This document shows, piece after piece, positions 4,785 to 52,870 of a stretch of 64,000 bases of DNA. The notes below the pieces were generated by a model. That model had not been told where the DNA came from, made no database searches, and saw only the letters and a program-made list of their open reading frames with translations. Every line of letters starts with the position of its first letter. The first letter of the stretch is position 1. Source of the stretch: Deltaproteobacteria bacterium. Lineage in GTDB: Bacteria; Lernaellota; Lernaellaia; JACKCT01. The translations under genes and the position numbers were made by a program. The stretch is from assembly GCA_020633895.1 (NCBI GenBank), contig JACKCT010000001.1, positions 462,130 through 526,129 on the forward strand, written 5' to 3'.

Positions 4785-6422
4785 ATGCCGCGTATGGGTT
4801 TTGAAAAGCGACGACGCACGCCGCCGCAGGACGCCGACCGGGCCGCCGGGGGCGTGGCGCGCGTGTTGAAGATCGCCGATGACGAGGGCGTGCCGGTCGC
4901 CGAGACCCCCCCGGACATCCTGCTGTTCTCGCCGCCGCCTTGGCTGGTGACGGGCCCGCCGCTGGGTTTGGCCGCCGTGTCGGCGTACCTCAAGGCCCAG
5001 GGCTGGCGGGTCAAGATCATCGACGGCAACACCAAGGCCTACCACGACGCCAAGCCCAAGGATCAACTCCTATGGCGTTGGGAATATTCGGCGTTTTGGG
5101 AGGACGAGGCCGAGGTGGAGAAACGCTTCGGCGCGATGCTGCGCCGATTGGCCGAGGAAGCCGCGGCGGTCGGATCCTGGGCGATCGGCGTGAACGTGGT
5201 GCATCGCAAGGAGGCGGCGGTGGCCATCTTCCTGCGACGCCTCAAGGAGCTTCGACCGGACCTGCGCATTTTCGTCGGCGGACCGGGAGCGGGTTGGAAG
5301 GAATCCCGCGATCACCTGCGCGAGCTGGCCGGGGACCTGGTGGACGGCTTCGTGGTGGGCGAGGGCGAGGTCGTCTGCGACGAACTGCTGCGACGCATGC
5401 GCAAGGGTGAGAGCCTGGAAAACCTACCCGGATTCATGATCGCCGGGCCCGACGGCGAGGCGAAGTTCAAGCCGGGGCGCGTGATCCTGGACATGAACAA
5501 GCTGCCCGTGCCCGATTTCGGCGACTTCGAAATGGAGCACTACGACGACAATTCCCTGGTCGTGGAATGGAACCGGGGATGCGTCGCGCGATGCACCTAT
5601 TGCTCGGTCAACGACTTCTGGAACGCGTTCCGCTTCAAGGGCGCCAAGGCCGTCGCCCACGAACTCAAGACCCTCCACGACCGCCACGGCATCGAGAAAT
5701 TCGTCATCGTCGACCCCATGGTCAACGGCAACCCCGAGCACCTGGACGCCATCTGTGAGGCGATCATCGAGTCGGGGGTGAAGGTGCGTTGGTCGGCGGG
5801 CATCTCGCCCAACCGGGACGTGCCCAAGTCGACCTTCGTGAAGATGTCGGCGGCGGGGTGCTACCAACTCGAGTTCGGCGTGGACTCGGGATCGAACAAG
5901 ATCCTTCGCAAGATGGGCAAGCGCTTCAAGGCCGACCAGGCCGGACGCATGATGCGCGACGCCCACAACGCCGGCATCGACGTGATGCTCTACCTGATCG
6001 TCGGTTTCCCCGGCGAGACCGACGAGACCGTGCAGGAGACCATCGACTGGCTCGACGAGTACGGCGAGTCCATCGACATGGTGCGTTCGATCAATAGCCT
6101 GACCATCGAGGACGGCACGGCGGTCGAGCAGCGTTCCGAATTGTTCGGCGTGGAGAAGGACAAATCGGACGTGAACTGGCGCGACAACTGGCACGAGTCG
6201 GGCAGCTCGCCCGAGATGCGCAAGGCCCGGGTGGATCGGGTGATCGACAAACTCAAGGAACTGAAAATCCCCATCGAAGCCGAGATTATCGCCGAGCAGA
6301 CCGCCGGCGAGGATGGACCGACACTGCCCGACTGGGGCGGGGCCACGCAGTCCGCCGGACCGAGCGCCGGCGCGGGAACCTTCGGCTGCGCGTCCTTCCC
6401 CACGACGGGTGACGAGGGCTGA
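4785..6422 (+). CDS. B12-binding domain radical SAM protein (class B rSAM, stand-alone module)
   Basis: N-terminal cobalamin-binding-like region ILLFSPPPWLVTGPPLGLAAVSAYL...VKIIDGN; rSAM core VVEWNRGCVARCTYC (Cx3Cx2C); stop TGA overlaps start of next gene (TGATG). Same module architecture as the four repeats inside 6422..14053. Confidence 0.8.
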   Translation: MPRMGFEKRRRTPPQDADRAAGGVARVLKIADDEGVPVAETPPDILLFSPPPWLVTGPPLGLAAVSAYLKAQGWRVKIIDGNTKAYHDAKPKDQLLWRWEYSAFWEDEAEVEKRFGAMLRRLAEEAAAVGSWAIGVNVVHRKEAAVAIFLRRLKELRPDLRIFVGGPGAGWKESRDHLRELAGDLVDGFVVGEGEVVCDELLRRMRKGESLENLPGFMIAGPDGEAKFKPGRVILDMNKLPVPDFGDFEMEHYDDNSLVVEWNRGCVARCTYCSVNDFWNAFRFKGAKAVAHELKTLHDRHGIEKFVIVDPMVNGNPEHLDAICEAIIESGVKVRWSAGISPNRDVPKSTFVKMSAAGCYQLEFGVDSGSNKILRKMGKRFKADQAGRMMRDAHNAGIDVMLYLIVGFPGETDETVQETIDWLDEYGESIDMVRSINSLTIEDGTAVEQRSELFGVEKDKSDVNWRDNWHESGSSPEMRKARVDRVIDKLKELKIPIEAEIIAEQTAGEDGPTLPDWGGATQSAGPSAGAGTFGCASFPTTGDEG

Positions 6423-9400
6423 TGCACGCCCACGACGCCAAGAAGACGATTCTGTCGCCGGAACACCTGATGATCCAGACGACATCCCGGTGCAACTCGG
6501 GGTGCGTCATGTGTCCTTGGCCCGACACCGCCTCCGCCCAGCCCCAGGGCGATATGTCCGACGCCCTTTACCGACGCATTGTCGACGAAGTGCGCGAGTT
6601 TCCCGATCTGTCGCGCATCATGCTCTACCTGATGAACGAGCCCCTGCTCGACAAGAAGCTGCCCGAGCGCGTGAACCTGATGCGCAAGGCCCGGCCGTAC
6701 GATGAAATCTACATCGTCACCAACGGCCTTCTTCTCGACCGGGACTTGGGCGACCGGCTGATCGACTCGGGCCTGTCGTGGCTGTCGATCTCCATCCACG
6801 CCCTGGAACCGGCGACCTACGAGAAGATCACCAAGCGCAAGGACTGGGCCAAGCGCCGCGAGCCGATCGAGCGATTCATCGACCGGGCCATGGCCGCTCG
6901 GGGCGAGGACTTCGTGCAGATCAACATCACGAAGGTGCGCCCCCATATTTCCGACGAGGAATACAACGCCGCCGCCGAGCACTGGCGTTCGCTCGGTGTC
7001 CAGCGCGTCGATCTGGACGACGGCTATATCTCCCGCGCGGGCAATGTGGAGGTCTTCGGCCACCAGCGCCTGTCGACGCGCCGCACCAGCGGATGCAAAA
7101 CCATCTGGGCGTACAAGATGGCCCACGTGCTCTACAACGGCGACGTGCTGCCGTGCTGCATGGACTGGCGGCGCAAGGCGGTGTTCGGCAATGTGGAGCG
7201 CGACGGCGGCCTGCTTAACGTCTGGCGGGGCCAGGGGCGCCACGGCTTCCTGGACAAACTGGGTTCGGGCGACGAGTTGCCCGAGGACTTCCTGTGCGTG
7301 GGCTGCGAGGACGCCATCCCCGCGGAGGGCGCGGAGACGGTCGTCATCAACGAAGCCAAAAGCCCGCCGCCGCCGAAGAAAGCCGCCGTGCCCGTCAAGT
7401 TCGTCTCCAAGTCGGAAGCGGCGGTGACATACGCCGACGGCACTTCCGTCGCCGCGAGCGAGACCATCGTCCTTGCCGCCGCCCCGACCCCGGCCAAGGC
7501 GAACGGCCATTCCAACGGCAGTTCTAACGGCAGTTCCAACAGCAGCGCAAACGGCCATGACAACGGCGCGGCCGCCTTCGACACCGGCAGTTCGAATCCG
7601 ATCATCGCGACCTACGACGCCGCCGTCGACGAGAGCTTCCGCAAAGGCGGTCGCGAGACCGAGCCGACGGATTTTTCGAAGGGCGAGGTGGATGTCGTCT
7701 TCTTCGCGCCGCCGCCGTGGCTGACCAGCGCGCCGCCTCTGGGCTTGGCGTCGATCACCGGCTTCCTGCGCAAAATGGGCTGGCGAGTGAAGGTCGTGGA
7801 CGGCAACGTGCGCCTGTATCATTTCGCCGGGAAGACGCACCAGAACCTGTGGGACTGGGAGCGCGGGCCGTTCTGGGAGAAGTACGACAACGTTGCGGGC
7901 GTCTTCGGCGAAGAATTGCGCAAGATGGCCCGGGAAGTCGCCGAACTGCGGCCGAGCGTGGTGGGCGTGAACTGCGTCTCGCGCAAGGAAGTGGCCTTCG
8001 CGATCTTCCTGGACGAACTCAAAAAGCACCACCCGGAATGCAAAGTCTTTATCGGCGGGTCGGGTATCGGCCACTTCGAATTGCGTCGCCATGTGCGCAG
8101 CATCGTTCGCGACTACATGGACGGGTTCCTGGTCGGCGAGGGCGAGCTGATGATGCACAAGGTCCTCACGCGCATGCGCGACGGACGGACCTATGACGAC
8201 ATCCCCGGCGTGGCGACGTACGTCTTGGAAACCAGCGAGGAGATCTTCACGCCCCAGGAGGAGACGCCGGACCTGGGCATCCTGGCGCCGCCCGACTACA
8301 CCGATTTCGATCTGTCGGCCTATTCGTCGCCGAGCCTTATCGTCGAGTGGAGTCGCGGGTGCGTGGGGCGGTGTACATTCTGCAATATCAACGACCTGTG
8401 GAAGAAGGTGCGTGTCAAGGCGGCCGAGCAGGTCGTCGAGGAGATCAAGACTCTCCAGACCCGCCACGGCACCGAGTATTTCTCCGTCGTCGATCCCATG
8501 ACCAACAACGACGTGGACACCCTGGAAGCCGTTTGCGACGGTCTGATCCGGGAGAAAATCCACATCAAGTGGTCGTGCGGCATGTCGCCCAATCGGCGCC
8601 TCACCGCCGAGCAGTTCCGCAAGATGGCTGCCGCCGGGTGCTATCGCGTGGAATACGGCGTCGAGTCCGGTTCGGACACGGTGCTCAAGCGCATGGGCAA
8701 GGAATACAAGGCCGAAGTGGCCGAACAAATGATCCGTGACGCTCACAACGCGGGCATCATGGTCGTGCTATATTTGATCGTCGGTTTCCCCGGAGAGACG
8801 GAAGAGGACCTTCAGCAGACGATCGCGTTCCTGGAACGCAACGCGAAATACATCTCGCTGGTGCGCAGCGTGAACGGGATGGTCATCATCCACGGCGCGC
8901 CGGTGGAGCGAAAGCCCGAGGTCTTCGGCATCGGCGAGTTGGACCGGCTGGAGGACGGCTGGACCAACCGCTGGAGCGCCGGGGACAACACACCCGAGCT
9001 TCGGACCGAACGGGCGGCGCGGGTGACACGGAAGTTGAACGACCTCGGCATCCCGGTCGAGTTCGAGAATGTGGAAGAGGTTATGCCCAACGCGATGCTC
9101 TACGACAAACGCATGGACCAGACCAAGGAGCGCTTGGCCGCCGTCGAGAAGGATCTGAACGATCTGCTCGGCCTGATGGACAAGCTGATGCGCGGCGAGC
9201 CCACGCGGCAGGTGGTCGGCCACGACCAGTTGGCGTTGGTGCTCTGTCCCGTTTGGGGGGTCGACTCGCCGCCCCTGGGGTTGGCGGCCATGGCGGGCTT
9301 TGTGCGCAATCAGGGCTACGAGCCGATGGTGATCGACTTCAACATCGAACTGTTCCACAAGGCGAACGAAAAGCAAAAACCCTTCTTCGAGGAAGACTCT

Positions 9401-12400
9401 TTCCGTCATTGGACCGACGAGGCCGGCGCCGCGAAAATCGTCGCCGCCTTCACCAAGGAGATCGACGAGCTGGTCGACCGGCTCATCGACTCGGGCCGCA
9501 GCATGATCGGCTTCACGATCTATTCGGCCAACCGCTTGTTCGCCAAGGAAGTCATGCGGCGCATCAAGGCCCGCGATCCCAAACGCGTCATCGTCGTCGG
9601 CGGCCGGGGCGCCCACACGAAAAACGAGCGCCTGCTCTTCCCTCGCGATCTGGTCGACTACTTCATCGTGGGCGAGGGCGAGACGTCGCTGATCCCGTTG
9701 ATGGAGGAAGTCTTCGCCGGCAAATCGGGCCAAGGGCTGCCGGGCGTGGACACCTACGACGGATTCGAACTCACCGGCTACGAGCCGCGCCCGCGCCTGC
9801 ACGACCTGACGCTTCTGCCGCCCCCGGCGTACGACATGCTGCCGCTGGACCTGTATCGCGGCGACGAGATCCCCGTGCAGTTCTCGCGGGGGTGCGTGGC
9901 TCATTGCACCTTCTGCAACGACTCGCACAAGAACACGGGCTTTCGTTCCCGGCCCGGCAAGCACATGGCCGCCGAGATCAAGCAACTGGTCGAAGTCACG
10001 GGACGCAAGCGTTTCCGCTTTAACGACCTGCTGATCAACGGCAACCTGGAAGTGCTCGAGGAGTTGTGCGACGAGCTGATCGCCATGGACCTGGGCATCA
10101 AGTGGATCGCCCTGTTCCAGCCTCGCGGCGACATGAAGGACGAACTGCTTTTCAAGATGGCCAAGGCCGGATGCTACACGGTCAACATGGGCGTGGAGCA
10201 CGGCTCGACGCGCATCCTGAAGATCATGGGCAAGGGCTTCAAGGTCGCCGACATGGAGCGGGCGCTGCGCCAGACGCGGGCGGCCGGCATCAACACGATG
10301 CTCAATTTCATCATCGGCTATCCCGGCGAGACGCGGGAGGATGTCGACGAGACCATCGACTTCATCCGACGCAATCGCGAAAACATCTGCGGCGTCACGT
10401 CGGTCAACGCGTGCATCCTGCTTGAGGATTCGGCCATCGAACGCCGCGCGATCAAGCTGGGCGTCACGTACGACGACTATGCGACGCGGGACGTGAACTG
10501 GGTCCTGGGCGACAACACGCCCGACGAGCGCCAGGCGCGTCTGCGTAAGTTCGTGGAGTTTTTGGAAGCCGAGAACATTCCGTACCTGGTCACGAATCTC
10601 AAGGAACGCGCGGCGAACCTGGACGACCTGTCCATCGACGACATCGCCGCCGCGCCGGCCAACGGCGCCTCCAACGGTGAAACGCACGCCGTTCCCGGCG
10701 AATTGACGAATGTCGATCCCGAGCAGTTCGAATCGGTGGACGGTTTCATCCAAACCCGCGAGACCGGGTCGAACATCGCCGCCTACGCGACGCACGGCGA
10801 CCTGGGCGGCGGCCACGCCGAGGACGACGGCTTTGATCCGGCCAAGGGCGAGCCGCGATGGGAGGTCATTCCCACGGACTACGCGGACGTCATCTTCATC
10901 AAGTGTCCCCCCTGGGGCGTGGACGTCCCGCCGCTGGCCATTGCCTACCTGTCCGAGATGTGCCGCCAGGACGGCCTGAAGGTGCAGGCGGTCGACCTGA
11001 ACGTGAAGGTCTACAACCGCTGTCACGATCGCGGCCTGTGGGATATGGACCGCTACGCCGAGTGGGCCGACCCGAAATTCTTCCCCAAGACCTACAAGGA
11101 TTTGTGGGAGTGGACCGGGCACTACCTCAAGCAGATCGCCGAACATCCCGCGCCGGTCATCGGCCTGTCCACCAACACGGCCAACTACCGCTTCACCGTC
11201 GAGACGGCCCGCCGCCTCAAGGAGATGGCGCCGGAGAAGACCATCGTCATCGGCGGCACGGGTATTTCCAACAGTTTCGACGTGGAAGAACTCACGCCCA
11301 CCGACGCGGACTACCTCTTTTTCGGCGAAGCGGACATGGGCATCGCCAAGTTCGTGCGGGCCGTCGTGGACAAAAAAGATCCGGGAGACATCGAGGGCCT
11401 GATCAAGGTCGGCACCGAGTTTACTTACAGCTCGGTGCAGCGGGCGATTGTCGAGAAGGGCCTGAAGGTCGCCAACCCGACGATGATCGAACTGAACCTG
11501 AACGAGTACAGCTCCTCGGCCGTGCCGCTGCTGGCCAGCCGAGGATGCGTACGCCGATGCACCTTCTGCAACGACCATCAGATCTATCAGAAGTACCGTT
11601 ATCGCGAGGCCGAGGACGTGTTCAAGGACATGGAGTGGCACGTCAAGAATCGCGGCACGTCCCACTTCGCTTTCCTGGACCTGCTGCTCAACGGCAACAT
11701 GAAGACCCTCGTGGGTTTCTGCGATCTGGTCATCGAATCGGGCTACAAGGTGGCCTGGGGCGGGCAATGCATCGTGCGCAAGGAGATGCGCGCGGACGTG
11801 TTGCAGAAGATGGCCAAGGCCGGGTGCATGAGCATCGTGTACGGCATGGAGAGTTTCTCGGATGAAACGCTCAAGCTCATGCGCAAGTACTACACGCAGG
11901 AGTTGGCCAAGCGCGTCCTGACCGACACGAAAGAGGCGGGCATCGAGCCGATCATCAACATCATCTGCGGCTTCCCCGGCGAGACCGAGGAAGACTTCAT
12001 GCAGACCTACAACTTCATCAAGGACAATCCGGACATCGTCGGCCAGGTGGCGTCGGTGTCGCCGTGCCTGATCAACCTGGGTTCGGAACTGTTCGATCGC
12101 TACAAGGATTTCGACATCCGCTTCCCCGAGGAAGACGGGTCGGTCAAGTGGTACACGGGTGATAAGTCCAACACCTACGACATCCGGCTGCGTCGGGTGA
12201 TGATGATTACCGAGCTTCTCGCCAGCCGCGACAAGCACATCCACACGGTTAACATCTACGACAACGACGACAAAAAGGTCATGCGCGCCCGAGACGACAA
12301 GGCACGCTTCGACCGGGCCGTCGCGTCGGGTGGGTCGTTGCTCGGGGCGCCGCTGGTGGACGGGTCATCCCGCGCGGAGGCGGGGGAGTCGCCGGGAAAA

Positions 12401-14053
12401 TCTGAGACCGATGTCGCGGCGGCGGCGGCCTCGGTCGAGAATGCGCTGCCGCAAGTCGCCGTTCCGCAAAATGGAGCGCCGACGGTCGAAATCCACGCGC
12501 CGGGCACGAACGGCCATGCGAACGGTTCGACAAACGGCCACGCCAATGGTCGAACAAACGGGCACGGTAACGGCGTTGGCCAGCACCACATCGAGGACGT
12601 CGCGCCGGTGCAAAAGGCCGACATCGTTCTCGCGCTGCTGCCGCCTTGGGGTGTGAATTTCCCGCCGCTGGGTATCGCCAGCCTGGCCGCGTCGGCGCGG
12701 GACGCGGGCTTCAGCGTTTACGCCCGGGACATGAACATCGAGTGCTTCGATTATTGCGGCGAGTACCTGCGTTCCTGGTGGGAGCCGGAAAACCTCAAGT
12801 ATTGGTCGCCGGGCAAGCGTCTGGACGAAGTCTCCGCGTTCATCATGCCCAAGATCGACGCCTTCATCGAGGACGCCATCCGCCGCCGCCCGCTCGTGGT
12901 CGGCCTGTCGACGAACGAATCGAACCTGACCTTCTCCACCCGCGTCGCCAAAAAAATCAAAGAGGCGCTGCCCGATTGCAAAATCATGTTGGGCGGGCCG
13001 GGGGTGGCGTGGCCGGCGGATCGGCAAAAACTCGTCGGCGAGGCCTTCGACGCGTGCATTATCGGCGAGGGCGAGGACAGCCTGAACCAGGTGCTGACCA
13101 AGATGAAGGCCGGTGAGTCGTTGGACGATGTGAGCGGCCTGGAGTGGCTTTCCGGCGAGATCAAGAAGATTCCCGACAAGGGCGATCTGGTCAAATCGCT
13201 GGACGACCTGCCGCTGCCGCTGTTCGACGAGTTCCCGCTGCATATGTATCAGACCAAGCAGTTCCCGCTGATGATCGGCCGGGGTTGCACCAACCGATGC
13301 ACTTTCTGCAACGATCCGCAGATCACCCCGAAGTATCGCTTCAAGTCGCCCGAGCGCGTGCTCGACGAGGTGATGGCCTACAAGGAGCGCTACGACGCCC
13401 ACGACTTCCACTTCTGCGATCTGCTCATCAACGCCCACATCCGCAACCTGCGTGACTTCGCCCAGATGGTCGTCGACAAGGGCGTGCGCATGGCGTACTC
13501 GGGGCAGGCGCTGATCAAAAAACAGATGGACGACGAAACGCTGCGTATCATCGCCAAGTCGGGATGCACCAGCATGGTCTTCGGCGTGGAGAGTTTTTCC
13601 GATCGCGTGCTGACCGACATGCGCAAGGGCTATACGGTGCAGCAGGCCAAGGAATGCATCGAGCGGGTGCATAACGCGGGGATCAAGGTGATCGTCAATC
13701 TGATCGTCGGCTTCCCGACCGAGACGGAGGTGGAATTCCAGGAGACGATCGATTTCCTACGCGAGAACCACGGCCTCATCGATTCGATCTCGGCCCTGTC
13801 GGCGTGCATCGTGACGGCGCAGTCGGATCTGGAGAAGAATCCGGACAAATACGGCATCGTCCTGCCCAAGCCCGAGCATTGGTGCCAGTGGTACTCCAAG
13901 GACGGCGCCAACACCTACGACGTGCGCCAGGAACGGCTCTATCGCATGCTCGACGTGCTCAATGAGTTGAAAATCTCCCACGGGATGACGAATCGTTATT
14001 TGGAGATGATCGACGAGCGCCAATCGGAAGGTGAGCAACCGGCGGCCCATTGA
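6422..14053 (+). CDS. giant (2543 aa) multi-domain radical SAM fusion protein: SPASM-type rSAM domain + four tandem B12-binding rSAM modules
   Basis: Single uninterrupted 7.6-kb ORF. Domain 1 (nt ~6422-7320): TSRCNSGCVMCPW + LPCCMDWRRK...LCVGCE SPASM-like. Modules 2-5 begin at ~7689, ~9229, ~10885, ~12620, each with (F/L)xPPPW/PVWG..PPLGLA B12-like N-terminus and RGCxxxCTFCN rSAM motif (IVEWSRGCVGRCTFCN, VQFSRGCVAHCTFCN, LLASRGCVRRCTFCN, LMIGRGCTNRCTFCN). Inter-domain linkers are Asn/Gly/His/Ser-rich (NGHSNGSSNGSS..., NGHANGSTNGHANGRTNGHGNG). Confidence 0.7.
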   Translation: MHAHDAKKTILSPEHLMIQTTSRCNSGCVMCPWPDTASAQPQGDMSDALYRRIVDEVREFPDLSRIMLYLMNEPLLDKKLPERVNLMRKARPYDEIYIVTNGLLLDRDLGDRLIDSGLSWLSISIHALEPATYEKITKRKDWAKRREPIERFIDRAMAARGEDFVQINITKVRPHISDEEYNAAAEHWRSLGVQRVDLDDGYISRAGNVEVFGHQRLSTRRTSGCKTIWAYKMAHVLYNGDVLPCCMDWRRKAVFGNVERDGGLLNVWRGQGRHGFLDKLGSGDELPEDFLCVGCEDAIPAEGAETVVINEAKSPPPPKKAAVPVKFVSKSEAAVTYADGTSVAASETIVLAAAPTPAKANGHSNGSSNGSSNSSANGHDNGAAAFDTGSSNPIIATYDAAVDESFRKGGRETEPTDFSKGEVDVVFFAPPPWLTSAPPLGLASITGFLRKMGWRVKVVDGNVRLYHFAGKTHQNLWDWERGPFWEKYDNVAGVFGEELRKMAREVAELRPSVVGVNCVSRKEVAFAIFLDELKKHHPECKVFIGGSGIGHFELRRHVRSIVRDYMDGFLVGEGELMMHKVLTRMRDGRTYDDIPGVATYVLETSEEIFTPQEETPDLGILAPPDYTDFDLSAYSSPSLIVEWSRGCVGRCTFCNINDLWKKVRVKAAEQVVEEIKTLQTRHGTEYFSVVDPMTNNDVDTLEAVCDGLIREKIHIKWSCGMSPNRRLTAEQFRKMAAAGCYRVEYGVESGSDTVLKRMGKEYKAEVAEQMIRDAHNAGIMVVLYLIVGFPGETEEDLQQTIAFLERNAKYISLVRSVNGMVIIHGAPVERKPEVFGIGELDRLEDGWTNRWSAGDNTPELRTERAARVTRKLNDLGIPVEFENVEEVMPNAMLYDKRMDQTKERLAAVEKDLNDLLGLMDKLMRGEPTRQVVGHDQLALVLCPVWGVDSPPLGLAAMAGFVRNQGYEPMVIDFNIELFHKANEKQKPFFEEDSFRHWTDEAGAAKIVAAFTKEIDELVDRLIDSGRSMIGFTIYSANRLFAKEVMRRIKARDPKRVIVVGGRGAHTKNERLLFPRDLVDYFIVGEGETSLIPLMEEVFAGKSGQGLPGVDTYDGFELTGYEPRPRLHDLTLLPPPAYDMLPLDLYRGDEIPVQFSRGCVAHCTFCNDSHKNTGFRSRPGKHMAAEIKQLVEVTGRKRFRFNDLLINGNLEVLEELCDELIAMDLGIKWIALFQPRGDMKDELLFKMAKAGCYTVNMGVEHGSTRILKIMGKGFKVADMERALRQTRAAGINTMLNFIIGYPGETREDVDETIDFIRRNRENICGVTSVNACILLEDSAIERRAIKLGVTYDDYATRDVNWVLGDNTPDERQARLRKFVEFLEAENIPYLVTNLKERAANLDDLSIDDIAAAPANGASNGETHAVPGELTNVDPEQFESVDGFIQTRETGSNIAAYATHGDLGGGHAEDDGFDPAKGEPRWEVIPTDYADVIFIKCPPWGVDVPPLAIAYLSEMCRQDGLKVQAVDLNVKVYNRCHDRGLWDMDRYAEWADPKFFPKTYKDLWEWTGHYLKQIAEHPAPVIGLSTNTANYRFTVETARRLKEMAPEKTIVIGGTGISNSFDVEELTPTDADYLFFGEADMGIAKFVRAVVDKKDPGDIEGLIKVGTEFTYSSVQRAIVEKGLKVANPTMIELNLNEYSSSAVPLLASRGCVRRCTFCNDHQIYQKYRYREAEDVFKDMEWHVKNRGTSHFAFLDLLLNGNMKTLVGFCDLVIESGYKVAWGGQCIVRKEMRADVLQKMAKAGCMSIVYGMESFSDETLKLMRKYYTQELAKRVLTDTKEAGIEPIINIICGFPGETEEDFMQTYNFIKDNPDIVGQVASVSPCLINLGSELFDRYKDFDIRFPEEDGSVKWYTGDKSNTYDIRLRRVMMITELLASRDKHIHTVNIYDNDDKKVMRARDDKARFDRAVASGGSLLGAPLVDGSSRAEAGESPGKSETDVAAAAASVENALPQVAVPQNGAPTVEIHAPGTNGHANGSTNGHANGRTNGHGNGVGQHHIEDVAPVQKADIVLALLPPWGVNFPPLGIASLAASARDAGFSVYARDMNIECFDYCGEYLRSWWEPENLKYWSPGKRLDEVSAFIMPKIDAFIEDAIRRRPLVVGLSTNESNLTFSTRVAKKIKEALPDCKIMLGGPGVAWPADRQKLVGEAFDACIIGEGEDSLNQVLTKMKAGESLDDVSGLEWLSGEIKKIPDKGDLVKSLDDLPLPLFDEFPLHMYQTKQFPLMIGRGCTNRCTFCNDPQITPKYRFKSPERVLDEVMAYKERYDAHDFHFCDLLINAHIRNLRDFAQMVVDKGVRMAYSGQALIKKQMDDETLRIIAKSGCTSMVFGVESFSDRVLTDMRKGYTVQQAKECIERVHNAGIKVIVNLIVGFPTETEVEFQETIDFLRENHGLIDSISALSACIVTAQSDLEKNPDKYGIVLPKPEHWCQWYSKDGANTYDVRQERLYRMLDVLNELKISHGMTNRYLEMIDERQSEGEQPAAH

Positions 14054-14070
14054 TACGTGAGGTGAGATCT

Positions 14071-14143
14071 TTCAGATCCGCGACCGTCAGGGAGCGGGTT
14101 GCCGCGACGAACTAACCCGCTTGCTGACGCGCGCGGTTCTGAA
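14071..14143. repeat. REP-like imperfect palindromic intergenic repeat, family A (short 73-bp form)
   Basis: TTCAGAtCCGCGACCGTCAGGGAGCGGGTTG...CAACCCGCttgctgaCGcgCGCGGtTCTGAA; the same unit recurs at 41286..41358 and in longer forms at 21969, 46924 and 48431; sits between convergent gene ends. Confidence 0.5.
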
Positions 14144-16103: not shown

Positions 16104-16176
16104 CAGTCCCAACGGGAATCGAACCCGTGTTTTCGGCGTGAGAGGCCGACGTCCTAGGCCGCTAGACGATGGGACC
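16104..16176 (-). tRNA. tRNA-Glu (anticodon CUC)
   Basis: Minus-strand sequence GGTCCCATCGTCTAGCGGCCTAGGACGTCGGCCTCTCACGCCGAAAACACGGGTTCGATTCCCGTTGGGACTG closely matches the canonical bacterial tRNA-Glu cloverleaf; anticodon loop CUCUCAC gives CUC; TTCGATT T-loop. Confidence 0.7.
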
Positions 16177-16265: not shown

Positions 16266-16336
16266 TTCAGGGACTAGGATTCGAACCTAGATAACAGGAG
16301 TCAGAGTCCTGGGTCTTACCATTAGACGATCCCTGA
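16266..16336 (-). tRNA. tRNA-Gln (anticodon CUG)
   Basis: Minus-strand TCAGGGATCGTCTAATGGTAAGACCCAGGACTCTGACTCCTGTTATCTAGGTTCGAATCCTAGTCCCTGAA: 7-bp acceptor stem TCAGGGA/TCCCTGA, D-stem GTCT/AGAC, anticodon stem CAGGA/TCCTG with loop CUCUGAC, T-arm CTAGG-TTCGAAT-CCTAG; U-start typical of tRNA-Gln. Confidence 0.7.
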
Positions 16337-21957: not shown

Positions 21958-21968
21958 TCTTGCTGTCG

Positions 21969-22067
21969 TTCAGAGCCCCGACCGGTAGGGACGGGTCTAC
22001 GCCAACCGGGCACGCCACGTTCGTGCAGAGGCGGACCGGACCGCTTACTACCGTGCGCGGCTCTGAA
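21969..22067. repeat. REP-like palindromic repeat, family A (long variant)
   Basis: TTCAGAGCCCCGACCGGTAGGGACGGG...CCAACCGGGCACG...CGTGCGCGGCTCTGAA, lying between convergent ends of the phosphoesterase and purF. Confidence 0.45.
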
Positions 22068-22084
22068 GGAGCGGAATTATGGTT

Positions 22085-24694: not shown

Positions 24695-25858
24695 ATGTTG
24701 AACTTTGATTTGACCGAACAGCAGAACATCCTGCGGGATCAGATCCGCAATTTCGCCGAAAAAGAGATCCGCCCCGTCGCCGAGGAATTGGATCGCACCG
24801 AGACCTTTTCCGTCGACCTGACGCGCAAGATGGCCGACCTGGGCCTGTTCGGCATGTTCGTTTCCGAGGAATACGGCGGCGCGGGGATGGACTACATCAG
24901 CTACATCATCGCGGTGGAGGAACTCTCCCGCGTCGACGCCTCCCAGGCCGCGACGGTAGCCGCAGGAAACTCGCTGGGCATTGGGTTGATCTACTATTTC
25001 GGCACCGAGGAGCAGAAGCGCGAATGGCTGCCCCGCCTATGCCGAGGCGAGATCCTGGCCAGCTTCGGCCTGACCGAACCCAACGCCGGTTCCGACGCCT
25101 CGGCCAGCAAGACCCGCGCGGTCCAGGACGGCGACCATTGGGTCATCAACGGCTCCAAGATCTTCATCACCAACAGCGCCTCCGAGATCGCGGGGGTGTG
25201 CATCGTGCAGGCCGTGACCGGCAAGGCGGACAACGGCAAGCCGGAGATTTCCTGCTTCATCGTTCCCCGCGACACGCCCGGTTTCACCGCCAAGGCCATG
25301 CACAACAAGATGATGTGGCGCGCCTCGGACACCGGCGAATTGACGTTCGAGGATGTGCGCGTGCCGGCGACAAGCATGCTCGGCCACCAGGGCAACGGCT
25401 TCAAGCAGATGATGCAGACCCTGGACGGCGGGCGGCTGTCCATCGGCGCGATGGGCTTGGGCGGCGCTCAGGGAGCCTACGAGGAAGCGCTCAAGTACGC
25501 CCAGGAGCGCACGCAGTTCGGCAAGAGCATCGGCGATTTTCAGGTCAACGCCTTCAAGTTGGCGGATATGGCGATGGAGATCGAGATGGCGCGGCTGCTG
25601 CTCTACAAGGCCACGTGGCTGCGTGACCACCACCGCTCCTTCGGCAAGGAAGCGGCCATGGCCAAGCTCTATTGCTCGGAGGTCATGCGGCGCGTGACGC
25701 ACTCGGCGGTGCAACTCCACGGCGGTTACGGCCTGATGCAGGAATTCCCGGTCGAGCGTTTCTATCGCGACCAGCGCCTGCTCGAAATCGGCGAAGGCAC
25801 CAGCGAGGTGCAGCGCATCGTCATCGCGCGGCATCTGGGGTTGAAGCCGATTTTCTAG
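24695..25858 (+). CDS. acyl-CoA dehydrogenase (short/branched-chain type)
   Basis: 387 aa, typical ACAD layout: GLFGMFVSEEYGGAGMDY, FGLTEPNAGSDA, C-terminal YRDQRLLEIGEGTSEVQR catalytic-base region. Confidence 0.9.
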   Translation: MLNFDLTEQQNILRDQIRNFAEKEIRPVAEELDRTETFSVDLTRKMADLGLFGMFVSEEYGGAGMDYISYIIAVEELSRVDASQAATVAAGNSLGIGLIYYFGTEEQKREWLPRLCRGEILASFGLTEPNAGSDASASKTRAVQDGDHWVINGSKIFITNSASEIAGVCIVQAVTGKADNGKPEISCFIVPRDTPGFTAKAMHNKMMWRASDTGELTFEDVRVPATSMLGHQGNGFKQMMQTLDGGRLSIGAMGLGGAQGAYEEALKYAQERTQFGKSIGDFQVNAFKLADMAMEIEMARLLLYKATWLRDHHRSFGKEAAMAKLYCSEVMRRVTHSAVQLHGGYGLMQEFPVERFYRDQRLLEIGEGTSEVQRIVIARHLGLKPIF

Positions 25859-25873
25859 CCGCGTAGTCGCGGC

Positions 25874-25913
25874 GGACTAACGGATACCTTCGGTATCCTT
25901 CACGCTGACGCGT
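25874..25913. repeat. stem-loop repeat, family B (GGACTAACGGATACCTTCGGTATCC..CACGCTGACGCG)
   Basis: Perfect hairpin GGATACC-TTC-GGTATCC right after the acyl-CoA dehydrogenase stop; a reverse-orientation copy lies at 51806..51844. Confidence 0.45.
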
Positions 25914-26018
25914 TGTCGAAAGACCCAATGTGGTTGTCGCGTTGCGCTGCTTGGGAATGAACGATGCCGGCCTTGCCGGTAATCTACAGAATAGGTATTT
26001 AGAACGAAGAATAGGAAT

Positions 26019-26046
26019 CGTGTCATCCTGAGCAACGCGAAGGATC
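26019..26046. repeat. left arm of 28-bp perfect inverted repeat flanking the GIY-YIG gene
   Basis: CGTGTCATCCTGAGCAACGCGAAGGATC; exact reverse complement found at 26389..26416. Confidence 0.8.
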
Positions 26047-26342
26047 TAGGTCCAACCTCGTACTCCGCTTAGGTCTTCCCATTCCGGGTTTCGAGATTCA
26101 ATTAATTCAATTTTTTTACGCCGGGTCCAACCCTTGATTTGCTTTTCGCGTGCGATGGCGCGGTCGACATCGGGATAGCGTTCGAAATAAACGAGTTGGT
26201 CGATCTTATATTTGGCCGTAAATCCCTTTTGCGTTCCGGTTTGATGTTCCGCCACACGACGATACACATCATTCGTCACCCCGACATAAAGCGTGCGGGA
26301 GTGATTTGTCATGATGTAGACCCAGTAGGACTTCGAACCCAT
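26046..26342 (-). CDS. GIY-YIG nuclease family protein (small stand-alone type)
   Basis: 98 aa; YWVYIMTNHSRTLYVGVTNDVYRRVAEH GIY-YIG motif; gene fully enclosed by 28-bp inverted repeats. Confidence 0.85.
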   Translation of the reverse strand: MGSKSYWVYIMTNHSRTLYVGVTNDVYRRVAEHQTGTQKGFTAKYKIDQLVYFERYPDVDRAIAREKQIKGWTRRKKIELIESRNPEWEDLSGVRGWT

Positions 26343-26388
26343 GGTCGGACCTTATTTCATCAACGTGCGCTGATCTGTGGTCGATGCC

Positions 26389-26416
26389 GGATCCTTCGCG
26401 TTGCTCAGGATGACAC
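26389..26416. repeat. right arm of 28-bp perfect inverted repeat flanking the GIY-YIG gene
   Basis: GATCCTTCGCGTTGCTCAGGATGACACG, reverse complement of 26019..26046. Confidence 0.8.
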
Positions 26417-26442
26417 GGTTGTCCGCCTCCTCACACTGGTCC

Positions 26443-27432
26443 CTACTCCGGAAACAACCGATCCCCCGTCACCAGAAACGGGGTCTTTGCGTCCACGGCC
26501 AGATAGCGCGGGTCGTGCGTGGTGACGATGGGCAGGTCGGGCTGCGCGCGGCGTAGTTGCCGCAGGCGTTCGAGCGTGTTTTCGGCTAGGGCTTCGTTCT
26601 CGGTCTCGCCGATGGGATCGGCCGCTGCGATATTTTCCATCCGCTGCGCCGCCTCGCCGACCAGCAGATACTCCGTCGTTCGCGTGCGGACCAGCACCGC
26701 CATCGACCCCGGCGTCCGCCCCGGCGCCGGCAGCAGGATGATCGACCCGTCGCCGTAAAGATCGAAATGCCCGGGGAAGGTCAGGTACGGCTCCGTGCGC
26801 CGGAAATCCACCTCCCGCACCTGGGCGAGCGGCACATCTTCCTTGCGAACGCCCCTCGCCTTGGGCGCGTTAAGCATGTAGTCAATTTCCCCGCGCCCCA
26901 TCAGGATCGGCGTCTTGCCGAACACCTGCAACTCGCCGGTATGATCGAAATGCACATTCGTCAGGATGATCTTGTCAATGTCGTCGGGCGTCAGGCCGAG
27001 GGTCGTGATCTGGGCGACCACATCCTGACCCGGCAGCATCGAACGCACTTCATAGGACATGCGCCCGGCGAAGAGTTTGGAGCCGCCCCAGTAGGCGGTC
27101 GGGTCGAAGCCGAAGTGATGGTTGAGGCCCGTGTCGACCAGGACGAAGTGGGAGCCCCACTTGATCAGCGCGCAGAGGAAGGGGATGCGCACCGTGCCCG
27201 AGCCGTCCGTGCCGGTCATGATGTGCCCCGGCGCCCGGCCGATGCCGGTGTTCATGATCCAGATGGCCTCGACTTGACCCGGCGTGTCCCGCCCCGGCGC
27301 CATTTTGATCGGCTCGGGGGGCAGGGCGGGCGACGGTTTGGTGAGGCATCCCGAAAAAACGACGACAAAAACGGTCGCGACCGCGAGCAAAATCCGGCGA
27401 CGACCACCGGCCCTGGGGATGAAAATGCGCAT
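26443..27432 (-). CDS. MBL-fold metallo-hydrolase (lactonase-like), probable lipoprotein
   Basis: Signal peptide with lipobox-like FSGC; metallo-beta-lactamase HxHxDH-type motif (NVHFDHTGE). Confidence 0.75.
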   Translation of the reverse strand: MRIFIPRAGGRRRILLAVATVFVVVFSGCLTKPSPALPPEPIKMAPGRDTPGQVEAIWIMNTGIGRAPGHIMTGTDGSGTVRIPFLCALIKWGSHFVLVDTGLNHHFGFDPTAYWGGSKLFAGRMSYEVRSMLPGQDVVAQITTLGLTPDDIDKIILTNVHFDHTGELQVFGKTPILMGRGEIDYMLNAPKARGVRKEDVPLAQVREVDFRRTEPYLTFPGHFDLYGDGSIILLPAPGRTPGSMAVLVRTRTTEYLLVGEAAQRMENIAAADPIGETENEALAENTLERLRQLRRAQPDLPIVTTHDPRYLAVDAKTPFLVTGDRLFPE

Positions 27433-27517: not shown

Positions 27518-29302
<1,785 letters not shown>

Positions 29303-36496: not shown

Positions 36497-36531
36497 TCAG
36501 CCTGATTTCCAGGCGTAACGACTAGTCGCGA

Positions 36532-36891
<360 letters not shown>

Positions 36892-36950: not shown

Positions 36951-38228
36951 TTACGGCGCGACCGACGCCGGCGGATCGCTCGCCGTGGCGAGTTCCTCGA
37001 CCCATTCCTGAAGCGACGTTCCGCCTTCCTCGATTTCGAAATAGGTGTCCGACGTGGACGGCGCATGGCCGGTGCCTTCGATGAAGAACGTGGACCAGCG
37101 GCCCGTCGGCTCGAGCAGGTTGTCGCGCAAATCCTCCAGACCCGCCGCGTACGCCTCGCCGGTGATCGGATCGCCGACCTGGAAGAAGTCGCGAATCGTC
37201 TCGTCCTCCAGGTACGAATACAGGCCGAAGGTGCTGTTCGGGTATTCCGTCGCGTTGTACTTCTGGATGTTCTCCAAGCCGTCGAACTTCGTGCCGCAGT
37301 CATCGCAGCCGGGCGGGGGCACGACGTTCCACAAGGAGCGCAGGCCGAATTGCAGCACCGGGCTGAGCACGTCGTTGTCGGCCGGCAGGGGAGCCGAGTC
37401 GTTGAAGACGTTCACGTCGTTGCCCGGGAACGCCTGGGCGAATTCCAGGAATCCCAAGTTGGTGCCGAAGCCGCCGGCACTCTGGCCGATCAGGAAGACC
37501 GTCTGTACGCCGTCGAAATACTCGCCGAGCAGGTCGGCGATGTTGCGGATGTTGATCAGGCCGACGAACTGCTGCTTGCCGGAGGCGCCTTTGATTTCCA
37601 CATCGGTCGCATTGCCCGAATGCACGTCGCCGGTGCAGTAGGGGACAAAGACATTGTGCCAACCGGAAAGCGCGCTCGTCTCGGCCGCCGCCGCGCCGCC
37701 GTCGGCGAAGACGCCCTTGGTCAGCTCCCCGGACTTGGCGGAGGTGAATTCGGGTTCGCCGAATTTTTTGGGATTGCCCGCGCAAGTGCCCGCGTCAAAA
37801 CAGGCGCCGCCACCCTGCATGAAGATCATCAGCTTGTTGGCGTTTTCCTGCAGACGCACGGCGATGCCGGTCGCCGATCCGTCGCGGCAGATGTTGCCGG
37901 GCACCGGCAGCCAGACCCACTCGCCCGCGTTTTCATCCGCGTCGGCAAACGGTCCGCCCACCGGGAAGAACGGCGCCTCGGCCGTGTCGTCGTCGCCGGT
38001 GTCGTCATCCGCGGTGTCGTCATCGGACGTATCGTCGTCGTCGGTGTCGTCGTCATCGTCATCATCGGTGATGTCGTCGTCGCCGGTGTCGTCATCGATG
38101 GACGAACTGCTGTCGTCGTCGTCATCATCGTCGCCGCAGGCCGCGCCGGCGATAGCCAGCATCAACAAGGCCGACAGGACGAATAGCAAGAACCATAAAC
38201 GGCGCTCGGCGCCAGGGGAACGTCTCAT
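36951..38228 (-). CDS. pectin acetylesterase / Notum-like (PAE family) esterase lipoprotein with Asp-rich N-terminal linker
   Basis: Lipobox AGAACGDDDDDD; GGGACFDAGTC, YCTGDVHSGN and GQSAGG (nucleophile Ser) motifs typical of the PAE/Notum alpha/beta-hydrolase family; AGGAG RBS. Confidence 0.7.
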   Translation of the reverse strand: MRRSPGAERRLWFLLFVLSALLMLAIAGAACGDDDDDDDSSSSIDDDTGDDDITDDDDDDDTDDDDTSDDDTADDDTGDDDTAEAPFFPVGGPFADADENAGEWVWLPVPGNICRDGSATGIAVRLQENANKLMIFMQGGGACFDAGTCAGNPKKFGEPEFTSAKSGELTKGVFADGGAAAAETSALSGWHNVFVPYCTGDVHSGNATDVEIKGASGKQQFVGLINIRNIADLLGEYFDGVQTVFLIGQSAGGFGTNLGFLEFAQAFPGNDVNVFNDSAPLPADNDVLSPVLQFGLRSLWNVVPPPGCDDCGTKFDGLENIQKYNATEYPNSTFGLYSYLEDETIRDFFQVGDPITGEAYAAGLEDLRDNLLEPTGRWSTFFIEGTGHAPSTSDTYFEIEEGGTSLQEWVEELATASDPPASVAP

Positions 38229-38401: not shown

Positions 38402-39649
38402 CTACGGCCCGACGGACGCCGGCGGCTGGTTGAGCGTGGGCGTGGCCAGCTCCGAAACCCAATCGGTGAGCATCTTGTCGCCCACTTCCATGGTGAAGTA
38501 TTCAGGCGAGGTCACGATGCCGTGGCCGGTGCCCGGCGCGATGTACACGGACCACTGCTCGGTGTCCTTGAGGACGTTGTTGCGCAGGTCGACCAGGGAA
38601 TTCTCATAAGCGTTGGCGTCGATGGCCACATCCTCGCCGTAGAGATTGCGCATCGTTTCGTCACCGGCGTAGGAGAACAGGCCGAAGGTGCTCTCGTCGT
38701 ATTCGAGGGCGATGAACTGCTGAATGAACTCCATGCCCGAGTTGCCCACGCCGCCGGTGCAGTTTTCGCAGTCCTCGGGAAGTTCGATGCCCCACTGCAG
38801 CTTGAAGCCGGTCTGCTCCAAAACCGAGAAGACGTTGTTGTCCTTGGGCATGGGGAACGAGTCGTTGAACACGCGGATGGTGTTGTCGTCGAAGGCCGCC
38901 TCGAACTCGATGGCCGCCCAGTTGGTGCCCATGCCGCCGGCGTCCTGGCCGACGATGAACACGCGCTTGAGGCCCGTGAAGTACTGGCCGATCAGGTCGG
39001 CGACATTGCGCATATTGCGGATGCCCACGTAGATCTGACGGGCTTCCACGCCCTCGGCCTTGCCGTTTTCCTCAAAGCCCACGTGCAGATCGCCCGTGCA
39101 ATAGGGGATCACCACGTTGTTCCAGTTGGCGAACTCGCTGACGTTGGACTCGGAGCCGGTGCCGTCCGAGAGGATGCCCGCGTTAAGCGACGTGTCGGCC
39201 TGCATCTGCGTCTTGCCGTACTTGGCCGGGTTGGCGTCGCACGAGTCCTTGTCGGCGCAGGCGCCGCCGCCTTGCAGGAAGATCATCAGGTCGTCCGAGC
39301 CCTCGCCCTCCTGCAGGCGCACCGCGATGCCCGTCTGGGAGCCGTCGCGGCACAGGTTGCCGACCACGGGGATCCACACCCAGTCGCCGACGTTGGCCTC
39401 GGCCTCGGAGAATGTGTCCGCGATTGTTGTGTCGTCGTCGCCCAGGTCGTCGTCGTCATCGTCGACCGTGTCGTCATCCGACGTGTCGTCGTCAGTCGTA
39501 TCGTCATCGTCCGCGGTGTCGTCGTCCGCGGTGTCGTCGTCGTCATCGTCATCGCCGCTGCTGGCGCAGGCCAAGCCCAACGCCGTCGTCGCCGCGAATA
39601 ATCCCACCAACACGATCACCCACAAAAGGGTGCGCCGTTGCCTATCCAT
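38402..39649 (-). CDS. PAE/Notum-like paralog lipoprotein with Asp-rich linker; nucleophile motif GQDAGG (Ser to Asp)
   Basis: Same architecture as 36951..38228 (lipobox LACASSGDDDDDDD; GGGACADKDSC; YCTGDLHVG) but the GxSxG Ser is Asp; GGAGG RBS before the ATG at ~39649. Confidence 0.7.
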   Translation of the reverse strand: MDRQRRTLLWVIVLVGLFAATTALGLACASSGDDDDDDDTADDDTADDDDTTDDDTSDDDTVDDDDDDLGDDDTTIADTFSEAEANVGDWVWIPVVGNLCRDGSQTGIAVRLQEGEGSDDLMIFLQGGGACADKDSCDANPAKYGKTQMQADTSLNAGILSDGTGSESNVSEFANWNNVVIPYCTGDLHVGFEENGKAEGVEARQIYVGIRNMRNVADLIGQYFTGLKRVFIVGQDAGGMGTNWAAIEFEAAFDDNTIRVFNDSFPMPKDNNVFSVLEQTGFKLQWGIELPEDCENCTGGVGNSGMEFIQQFIALEYDESTFGLFSYAGDETMRNLYGEDVAIDANAYENSLVDLRNNVLKDTEQWSVYIAPGTGHGIVTSPEYFTMEVGDKMLTDWVSELATPTLNQPPASVGP

Positions 39650-41285: not shown

Positions 41286-41358
41286 TTCAGAGCCGCGCGC
41301 GTCAGCAAGCGGGTTGCCGCGACAAACCAACCCGCTCCCTCACGGTCGCGGCTCTGAA
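41286..41358. repeat. REP-like palindromic repeat, family A (short 73-bp form)
   Basis: TTCAGAGCCGCGCGCGTCAGCAAGCGGGTTG CCGCGACAAA CCAACCCGCTCCCTCACGGTCGCGGCTCTGAA; the arm variants are swapped left/right relative to the 14071 copy. Confidence 0.5.
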
Positions 41359-41385
41359 AGACCGAAGGCAAATCACCATCAAGGT

Positions 41386-44718: not shown

Positions 44719-44841
44719 AGCCACGGCCAATCAGGGTGCCACACTTTCACGGCGCGGTACGCAGCGGGAAGGTGTGAATTTCTGAGCCGCAACCTGTAGG
44801 GAGCGCGTTGGTCCGACCAGACAAACCTGGTCGATCCGACC

Positions 44842-46896: not shown

Positions 46897-46923
46897 CCGT
46901 TACATCGTGGCGCTCCGTATCCT

Positions 46924-47058
46924 TCAGAGCCGCGACCGTAAGGGAGCGGGTTGGCCCAACCCGGCACGATCTCTCGATGACCGGGCTGACGACGGAACCA
47001 ACCGCCCCCGTCCGGTTTCCCAGATTCGACCCCAACCGCTCCACCGGTCTTTCACAAA
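46924..47058. repeat. REP-like repeat family A (long, degenerate variant)
   Basis: Left arm TTCAGAGCCGCGACCGTAAGGGAGCGGGTTGG intact; right arm degenerate (CCCCAACCGCTCCACCGGTC). Confidence 0.35.
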
Positions 47059-48430: not shown

Positions 48431-48554
48431 AACAGAGCCCCAAGCGTCAGCGCGGGGTTGTCGAGCATGACGTCCTTGCGAGACGCACGAACAACGAGTT
48501 TTCAACAGGGTTGAAGGGCTACGACAACCCCTCCCTGACAGTCGGGGCTCTGAA
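48431..48554. repeat. REP-like repeat family A (long variant)
   Basis: AACAGAGCCCCAAGCGTCAGCGCGGGGTTG ...~60 nt... CAACCCCTCCCTGACAGTCGGGGCTCTGAA between convergent gene ends. Confidence 0.45.
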
Positions 48555-51644: not shown

Positions 51645-51805
51645 CGGATCGCAAGCGATCCTGCATGCCGGCGTGTGAGTCGGACGGGGCACGGGAAAGC
51701 GATGCGTTGAATTGACTTGTACCGTTACGAGCAAGGCTCGGCAGGGCTTAGCGCGATTCTGAATTCGGCTGGAGCGAAGCGACGAACGGCACGGGTCTTT
51801 CAACG

Positions 51806-51844
51806 ACGCGTCAGCGTGCAGGATACCTTGGTATCCGTTAGTCC
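51806..51844. repeat. stem-loop repeat, family B (reverse orientation copy)
   Basis: ACGCGTCAGCGTGCAGGATACCTTGGTATCCGTTAGTCC, reverse complement of the 25874..25913 unit; between convergent GT4 and rSAM genes. Confidence 0.45.
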
Positions 51845-51859
51845 GTCGGGACTACCCGA

Positions 51860-52870
51860 CTAGCAGCCCGCCGTGTTTTCACAGCGTTTGCAGAGGAAAT
51901 CGTCGGGCGACTCGACTTGGCCCGTGACCATGCCGACGAGATTGCTGTAGGGGTCGGATTGGAAATATTCGACGAGGCTCATGTCGGCCAGGGACGGCAG
52001 TGCCGTTTCGCCATGGTAATCCATGCAGCACATGCGGATGCGGCCGTCGTAGAGGATGTGGATCCACTGGTCGACGCGCCAGCAGTGGAAGGGGTTGGCC
52101 GGGCCGATTTCCCGCACGCGCCCGATTTTGTTGAGATGGGCGTTGCGCTCGGTGCGTCGGATGGTCCCGGCCCGGTCGTGAAAAAGGAACGCGTCCACGT
52201 CAACGGTCGCCGGGTCGATGCCTTCGCGCTCGAGAACCCGCTCCCAATAGGCGCGATAGTCGGCCTTGCCGAAGTAGGTGATGTTGCCTTTCAGTGACGT
52301 TCCCGCGCCCCGTAGTTTCAAATTCAACCGCCCGCCTGATCGCTTGAACAACCGCACCAGATTCGCCGTCGCCCGCTCGTAGTCGAGCTTCATGATGAAT
52401 TCCATCGACGTTGAGTCGATGCCGTGGTGAGAGAGCCAGATCTCGTGGCGACGGCCGTCGAACGCGGCCAGGAGTTTGTCGATCACCTTGTCGGTCAGGG
52501 CCGCGCCGTTGGTGGAAATCTCGACGAGGGTGCCGGGGAAGGCGTCGTAGATGCGTTCGATGCGCTCGAAGATTTTCGGGTCGATCAACGGCTCCTGCAT
52601 CAAATAGGGGCAGACCTTGCCGTCGTTGATCGTCGCGCCGAAGGGCGCCAGGTCGTCGAGGATCTTCTCGAACAGCGCGTCGCTCATCCGCCCGGGATTC
52701 TGCGCGTGCCAGCTTTCCGAATACGGGCAAAACACGCAGTCCGCGTTGCAGCGGGAGTGCGTTTGGATCTGGACGTAACGGATCTTCGGCACACCCGGCG
52801 GCAAAGGGGCGAGCACATCATCGTGGATTTTTTCGGGAATCGCGGCCATGAAACCTCGCCTTATCGTCAA
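51860..52870 (-). CDS. radical SAM / SPASM-domain protein (paralog of the N-terminal domain of the 6422..14053 megaprotein)
   Basis: IQTHSRCNADCVFCPY (Cx3Cx2C), RMCCMDYHGE...LCKRCE line up with IQTTSRCNSGCVMCPW, LPCCMDWRRK...LCVGCE of the megaprotein. Confidence 0.8.
   Translation of the reverse strand: MTIRRGFMAAIPEKIHDDVLAPLPPGVPKIRYVQIQTHSRCNADCVFCPYSESWHAQNPGRMSDALFEKILDDLAPFGATINDGKVCPYLMQEPLIDPKIFERIERIYDAFPGTLVEISTNGAALTDKVIDKLLAAFDGRRHEIWLSHHGIDSTSMEFIMKLDYERATANLVRLFKRSGGRLNLKLRGAGTSLKGNITYFGKADYRAYWERVLEREGIDPATVDVDAFLFHDRAGTIRRTERNAHLNKIGRVREIGPANPFHCWRVDQWIHILYDGRIRMCCMDYHGETALPSLADMSLVEYFQSDPYSNLVGMVTGQVESPDDFLCKRCENTAGC

Follow-up and report, generated by a model that had tools for sequence, protein, structure and literature searches.

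A 98-residue GIY-YIG nuclease gene between inverted hairpin motifs: very probably an ordinary SRM-ssn-SRM unit of the Ssn family

What kind of element is a small nuclease gene that is framed exactly by a perfect inverted repeat? This question is raised by a locus in the 64-kb stretch of DNA analyzed here (the window), where CGTGTCATCCTGAGCAACGCGAAGGATC lies at 26019-26046 (+ strand) and its exact reverse complement at 26390-26417, identical at 28 of 28 positions and delimiting a unit of 399 bp. The original prediction had recognized this repeat and the gene that it encloses; its left arm was placed correctly, whereas the right arm was set one base off (26389-26416) and the length given as 398 bp. 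With one mismatch allowed, the inverted repeat grows to 31 nt (26016-26046 and 26390-26420), and the whole unit including this imperfect repeat spans 26016-26420, the GTCAT ends of both motifs facing outward. An inverted repeat of 28 nt was found in none of 100 dinucleotide-preserving shuffles of the window. Other copies of the repeat, which had been proposed as something to look for, did not appear, as the window holds no third copy of the 28-nt arm at up to 3 mismatches. The left arm shares a single base (26046) with the stop codon of the gene and the right arm ends 47 nt before its ATG at 26342, both as first described.

The unit occupies the convergent 3'-3' intergenic gap between genes for an acyl-CoA dehydrogenase (acdh, 24695-25858, + strand) and an MBL-fold hydrolase (26443-27432, - strand), the neighbors named at the outset. 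These are chromosomal housekeeping genes, with no intron, intein or phage context. The MBL gene has the same orientation as the nuclease gene, and the two might be co-transcribed from their common strand; a scan of 25700-26700 for sigma-70-like promoters and terminators returned none. The repeat of about 100 nt said to adjoin the unit (family B) was also found, at 25855-25945, with an inverted copy of approximately 79% identity at 51774-51863. Both copies begin exactly at a stop codon, one that of acdh (24695-25858, + strand) and the other that of an ORF at 51860-52870 (- strand), and both contain a GGATACC...GGTATCC hairpin that is not an Ssn motif.

Several further features were recorded in the window. 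A palindromic, REP-like family of about 76 nt (TTCAGAGCCGCGACCGT.AGGGAGCGGGTTG ... CAACCCGC...CGGCTCTGAA) is scattered at 14068-14143, 21965-22070, 41286-41361, 44776-44817, 46919-46969 and 48527-48554 and is separate from the arms. Rfam matches at gathering thresholds comprise a TPP riboswitch (27527-27643) preceding thiC and two tRNA genes on the - strand (16104-16176 and 16266-16336). Five tandem paralogous genes lie at approximately 5300-14000, with conserved blocks spaced by 2780, 1533, 1653 and 1740 nt, one common block encoding a cysteine-rich stretch with a radical-SAM-like motif. In addition, long GTCATC/GTCGTC repeats with a 9-nt period are present in three neighboring paralogues (36505-36800, 37974-38145 and 39431-39566) and would encode Asp-rich tracts on the - strand.

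The enclosed gene (26046-26342, - strand, stop codon 26046-26048) encodes a single-domain GIY-YIG protein of 98 aa, in agreement with the initial annotation as a GIY-YIG nuclease. Residues 6-77 match the Pfam family GIY-YIG (PF01541) with E = 4e-16; the sole other Pfam match is T5orf172 (E = 2.7e-4, overlapping stretch), and NCBIfam gave weak, sub-threshold matches only. Catalytic-type residues are present as Y9, Y19, R29, H33, E66 and N85, the last four of which correspond to invariant columns of alignment A2. The public record lists an 88-aa product under the name 'GIY-YIG nuclease family protein', with an uncultured 'Deltaproteobacteria bacterium' as its source. This shorter call begins at an internal ATG (26312 instead of 26342, - strand) and drops the first catalytic tyrosine of the GIY motif. 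We took the 98-aa form as the real product because homologues align from residue 5 of this ORF and because a Shine-Dalgarno-like AAGG (26353-26350, - strand) is located 7 nt before the ATG at 26342, inside the 47 nt that separate the start codon from the upstream hairpin (26343-26389, - strand, read from the sequence). An exact look-up of the 98-aa ORF gave no match because the gene is called at 88 aa by NCBI. A total of 3931 homologues at 60-74% identity were found across phyla. The nearest solved structures by sequence are BH0048 (PDB 1zg2, E = 3.8e-7) and EF2693 (PDB 1ywl, E = 4.6e-5), both UPF0213 proteins, and no Ssn structure was found in the PDB by sequence.

A family of single-strand-DNA-specific nucleases with recognition repeats, named Ssn, has been described by Chenal et al. 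(Nat Commun 2025; PMC11893778). Its members are single-domain GIY-YIG proteins of about 94 aa (CDD cd10448), and their hairpin repeats are termed NTS in Neisseria and SRM in general (PMC11893778). At least one such repeat was reported near 71% of Ssn homologues, and repeats on both sides for 42%; dispersed copies of the motif are not required by the family description (PMC11893778). SsnA of N. meningitidis and three homologues bind the repeat as ssDNA only, cut a few nt 5' of it and are inactive on dsDNA, RNA and the complementary strand (PMC11893778). Binding depends critically on the C that directly follows the palindrome and cutting on the 3 nt that precede it, and in Neisseria the enzyme reduces transformation by NTS-carrying DNA (PMC11893778).

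The locus in the window fits this description closely. The 98-aa ORF has the family's small size and single GIY-YIG domain with no extra domain, and the NTS (CGTCATTCCCGCGMAVGCGGGAATCYRG) and the window arm share one frame, namely GTC, an AT...AT stem and then C. Moreover, the protein is 57% identical (E = 9e-36) to that encoded at locus L073, whose gene, like that at L081, has canonical Neisseria-type NTS on both sides (GTCATTCCCGCG...GCGGGAATCC). From the NTS-like frame, the NTS-flanked genes at these two loci and the identity to the L073 protein, we conclude that the locus is very probably an SRM-ssn-SRM unit, an ordinary member of the Ssn family and not a new kind of element. A protein search seeded with an NTS-flanked homologue gave no named Neisseria protein among the best 120 matches.

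The published SRM pattern, HGTCWYN(0-2)YYVSBRHN(0-5)WNVSBRGN(0-2)RNCYNB (PMC11893778), matches neither strand of the window. As a sanity check, it was confirmed to match the canonical NTS; of 80 homologous loci it hits 5, whereas a class with GA...GA interruptions was found at 54. The pattern is the authors' search heuristic and no defining trait, and its failure here is a matter of sensitivity that does not indicate a different system. The window arms are a stem variant with a tandem G-A interruption that this pattern misses.

To see how general this arrangement is, the 80 loci were taken from species-representative genomes that encode homologues, including Acidobacteriota, Chloroflexota, Bacteroidota, Cyanobacteriota, Planctomycetota, Patescibacteria and several proteobacterial classes. 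An ungapped inverted-repeat search across each gene recovered the same type of arm repeatedly, and extended homologue ORFs end in VILSAAKDL or LRCAQDD, which are the translated motif (ILRVAQDD for the window arm). In a scan for GTCAT followed by a stem, counted up to 400 nt from the gene, 68 of the 80 loci had a hairpin and 52 had one on both sides. The density was 3.1 per kb near the gene versus 0.12 per kb in the remaining 1.1 Mb, an approximately 25-fold difference. The commonest layout (33 of 80 loci) has the motif forward upstream and reversed downstream with GTCAT outward, exactly as in the window. Thus, the suggestion that the repeat belongs functionally with the gene is borne out by a family-wide association over 80 loci. 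The original prediction was to count as refuted if the repeat proved to be part of a larger family unrelated to the gene; this applies by half, as the family is indeed very large but is tied to the gene.

The consensus of the motif is GTC / AT-NNN / GA / GC-NNN-GC / GA / N'N'N'-AT / C. We examined its pairing in 75 distinct motif cores, which were picked by a pattern fixing non-stem letters only to avoid circularity. Stem pairing was observed in 96.4% of cells versus 84.6% in shuffles (reached by 0 of 500), and fell to 19-50% when the partners were slid. Two-sided changes numbered 72 versus 17 in shuffles, and covariation is seen at each of the five variable pairs. Among the outer triplets are CCT/AGG, TCT/AGA, GCT/AGC, CCC/GGG, TCC/GGA and GTT/AAC, and the inner clamp includes GC/GC, AC/GT, GT/AC and AT/AT. 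By nearest-neighbor folding, an isolated arm reaches about -2.5 to -3.9 kcal/mol, no better than shuffles. The evidence for the hairpin is therefore evolutionary, in the form of covariation, and not energetic. GTC and C were fixed by the pattern behind alignment A3, which is thus no independent evidence for them; in a stem-anchored scan of the homologous loci, both recur at nearly every hairpin.

Each window arm contains one such motif and reads GTC-ATCCT...AGGAT-C, with GTC 5' and C directly 3' of the palindrome. In the downstream arm (26019-26046, + strand), which is the exact repeat and scores 42.7 bits (E = 8.9e-10) with R1, a covariance model built from the motif cores above, the 5' half comprises GTC (26022-26024), the stem strand ATCCT (26025-26029), GA (26030-26031) and GC (26032-33). 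The AAC loop (26034-36) is followed by GC (26037-38), GA (26039-40), the stem strand AGGAT (26041-45) and C (26046), and the stem pairs have covariation support from the 75 distinct family members. The upstream arm (26390-26417, - strand) is the exact reverse complement of 26019-26046 and carries the motif forward on the coding strand of the gene, with GTC at 26414-26412 and C at 26390 (R1 39.2 bits, E = 8.6e-09). Run on the window with filters off, R1 reported these two arms and nothing else better than E = 1. Motif copies beyond the flanking pair are likewise absent within 10 kb on either side at 38 of the 80 homologous loci. One Chloroflexota MAG contains two ssn paralogues (L012 6238-6671 and L017 1937-2365), whose stem variants ATCCT/AGGAT and ATTCC/GGAAT suggest matched enzyme-site pairs in one genome.

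Why, then, are the two arms identical? The original prediction had offered two readings, recent mobility or selection for a long-range RNA hairpin across the mRNA, and neither is upheld. The exact 25-mer core GTCATCCTGAGCAACGCGAAGGATC occurs in more than 120 metagenome contigs, and 80 retrieved stretches (L105-L184) span 35-67% GC. Because an identical 25-mer recurs in so many contigs of such wide GC, the core must be highly constrained, and 3 of the 28 matching bases lie outside it. The perfect match of the arms hence reflects constraint on the motif, not recent movement. In these stretches, 48 copies of the 25-mer are flanked by 700 nt or more in both directions, and for all 48 an ssn gene is absent from the nearest 400 nt.

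According to the second reading, the arms were selected to pair in the mRNA, and the resulting 28-bp helix would close off the transcript and govern how stable it is or how well it is translated. Folded as RNA, the unit (416 nt) does pair its arms end to end at -153.7 kcal/mol (z = -5.6 versus shuffles), and both arms could be transcribed, since the MBL gene has the same orientation and the upstream arm falls between it and the start codon. However, among 39 further loci with this forward/reverse arrangement, one has identical arms, 17 have arms with only the stem in common and 21 have arms with different stems, and each arm retains its own compensated hairpin. Most identical copies of the 25-mer elsewhere are far from any ssn gene, and SsnA does not bind RNA (PMC11893778). 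In addition, Rfam has no match at the locus, either at gathering thresholds or at E <= 10, nor in nine homologous loci. We consider selection for such a helix very unlikely; what is conserved is the local hairpin, not pairing between the arms, and inter-arm RNA pairing is at most a minor local possibility in the window. As a separate candidate, we considered the 'COG2827' RNA motif, which we take to lie upstream of GIY-YIG genes, and dropped it for want of an Rfam match at the locus. Nothing relevant to the motif sequence or to the peptides read through it was found in the literature.

If this were an autonomous IS-like transposon, with a GIY-YIG transposase and hairpin ends, its perfect arms would mark a recent insertion. 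The layout is indeed IS-like, in keeping with the minimal mobile element first suggested, and the authors of the Ssn study likewise liken it to an insertion sequence (PMC11893778). The convergent 3'-3' gap would be a safe landing site, and pairs of the 25-mer without a gene, in the order '+ then -' and 4-56 nt apart, are present on many metagenome contigs and resemble REPIN or MITE derivatives. On the other hand, three genomes with 97-99% mutual identity have the unit at one and the same site: two assemblies that are 99.4% and 97.1% identical to the window have it in place with both arms intact and two substitutions within it. No direct repeat that could be a target-site duplication lies outside the arms. 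Two Ssn proteins that recur without any change on 21 and 24 contigs always keep their ssn-proximal gene context, with one downstream difference, and no pair of cassettes among 80 species exceeds 77% DNA identity (all-against-all, 81 cassettes). Furthermore, one cleavable motif per strand makes single-strand excision in the style of IS200/IS605 unavailable, and no strand-transfer activity is known for the Ssn family.

The search for an empty site that had been proposed, carried out via the MBL neighbor, yielded one relative with conserved synteny. This locus (L083) retains MBL ... acdh-DUF547 and lacks both ssn and the motif, which would suit an insertion; however, its MBL and acdh proteins share 43% and 68% amino-acid identity with those of the window, too distant for a precise, true empty site. 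Taken together, an active, autonomous transposon at this locus, its perfect arms marking a recent insertion, appears distinctly unlikely to us, and mobility of the SRM-ssn-SRM unit is unproven.

For the family as a whole, a related proposal is that SRM-ssn-SRM units are, or recently were, autonomous ssDNA transposons, with the gene-less doublets as their non-autonomous REPIN/MITE-like derivatives. We regard this as improbable, if worth keeping in mind; were it true, a GIY-YIG enzyme would for the first time be at the core of a prokaryotic transposon family. Of 88 copies of the 25-mer, 42 are accompanied within 150 nt by a partner on the opposite strand; 36 of these 42 are arranged '+ then -' with gaps of 4-56 nt, which is the cassette geometry without the gene. 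Locus L149 has 11 model matches (6 of them exact 25-mers) within about 1 kb (1312-2367), a BIME-like array surrounding an ssn gene that is 61% identical to that of the window. Loci L091 and L085, each with its gene at 4001-4288, encode an identical Ssn protein and agree in their upstream genes but not in their downstream neighbor, which is EamA in L091 and DUF2480 in L085; a breakpoint of rearrangement possibly falls on this downstream flank of the ssn unit.

Could the gene instead be a free-standing GIY-YIG homing endonuclease, a toxin-like nuclease or an integron cassette with attC-like ends, as had also been suggested? The catalytic domain is of the right type, the group I intron endonuclease model TIGR01453 scores 16 bits (cut-off 56), and a small gene is bounded by imperfectly palindromic sites. 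Yet the 98 aa form one domain only, with no extension for DNA binding, and no intron or intein is present, nor is an antitoxin, integrase or transposase in the surrounding 20 kb. Integron cassettes have one 3' attC, not two inverted sites, whereas here two identical sites are inverted and no integrase is among the called genes in 20 kb. Finally, the flanking motif is the family-wide Ssn hairpin. All three identities are exceedingly improbable for this gene.

With the locus read as an SRM-ssn-SRM unit, a working scheme can be drawn by homology with the characterized Ssn enzymes. Each arm would serve as one recognition element of the small GIY-YIG endonuclease, and the oriented hairpin would form only in single-stranded DNA, for example during replication, repair, conjugation or uptake in transformation. 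The protein may bind the folded hairpin and, a few nt 5' of the motif, cut the strand that carries it. Activity would probably depend on the stem together with the bases that directly adjoin it, GTC on the 5' side and C on the 3' side, while dsDNA, RNA and the complementary strand would not be substrates. As the arms are inverted, each strand would be cleavable at a single site, on the unit's outer edge. Based on the biochemistry of SsnA (PMC11893778), cuts are predicted on the + strand left of approximately 26019 and on the - strand right of approximately 26417, and the window protein probably cleaves beside these two sites. Its role might be to restrict or trim ssDNA, incoming or exposed, around the locus; otherwise, the unit may be an IS-like relic.

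The striking perfect inverted repeat around a tiny nuclease is thus explained by a family described in 2025 and should not be flagged as a new mobile element. What the present analysis adds to that family is small, namely an under-detected class of motif and widespread gene-less doublets. The commonest class in the 80 genomes, GTC-AT-NNN-GA-GC-NNN-GC-GA-N'N'N'-AT-C, is missed by the published SRM pattern, and surveys using that pattern therefore probably under-count Ssn targets. The 25-mer, found across hosts of 35-67% GC and often as gene-less doublets, offers a defined and very widespread site for testing the specificity of Ssn and whether such units move.

Comparison with known systems places the unit as follows. 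GIY-YIG homing endonucleases of the I-TevI type share the type of catalytic domain, but they add to it a long linker and a domain for DNA binding, cleave dsDNA and belong to introns or phage genomes, none of which applies here. UPF0213/YhbQ-type proteins (1zg2, 1ywl) are of the same size and also consist of a single GIY-YIG domain, but at about 30% identity they form a separate family, and we know of no hairpin repeat associated with them. In IS200/IS605 elements (TnpA, Y1), sub-terminal ssDNA hairpins are likewise recognized and cleavage takes place a short distance away; their hairpins, however, are on one strand, which can be excised, whereas the window motifs are on opposite strands, and the enzyme has another fold. 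The REP/REPIN system with RAYT (TnpA-REP, HUH Y1) resembles the unit in its single-copy nuclease gene between inverted short hairpin repeats, in repeats that are also dispersed and found in inverted doublets, and in the ssDNA hairpin recognition proposed for it, and it is thought to be a domesticated transposon. It differs in that the window enzyme is GIY-YIG and not a HUH tyrosine transposase, with no homology and no known joining activity; the 98-aa protein has no Pfam match to Y1_Tnp (RAYT, IS200/IS605). The closest system is Ssn with its NTS/SRM repeats. The window stem has 5 bp, a tandem G-A, a 2-bp GC clamp and a 3-nt loop, whereas that of the NTS is a continuous, GC-rich 8 bp. Two motif copies are present in 64 kb here versus hundreds per Neisseria genome, and this genome may lack dispersed targets of the Neisseria kind; the host, an uncultured 'Deltaproteobacteria' MAG, is not known to be competent. 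What the two have in common is a single-domain GIY-YIG protein of about 95 aa, inverted and oriented hairpins on both sides of its gene, and a distribution over many phyla.
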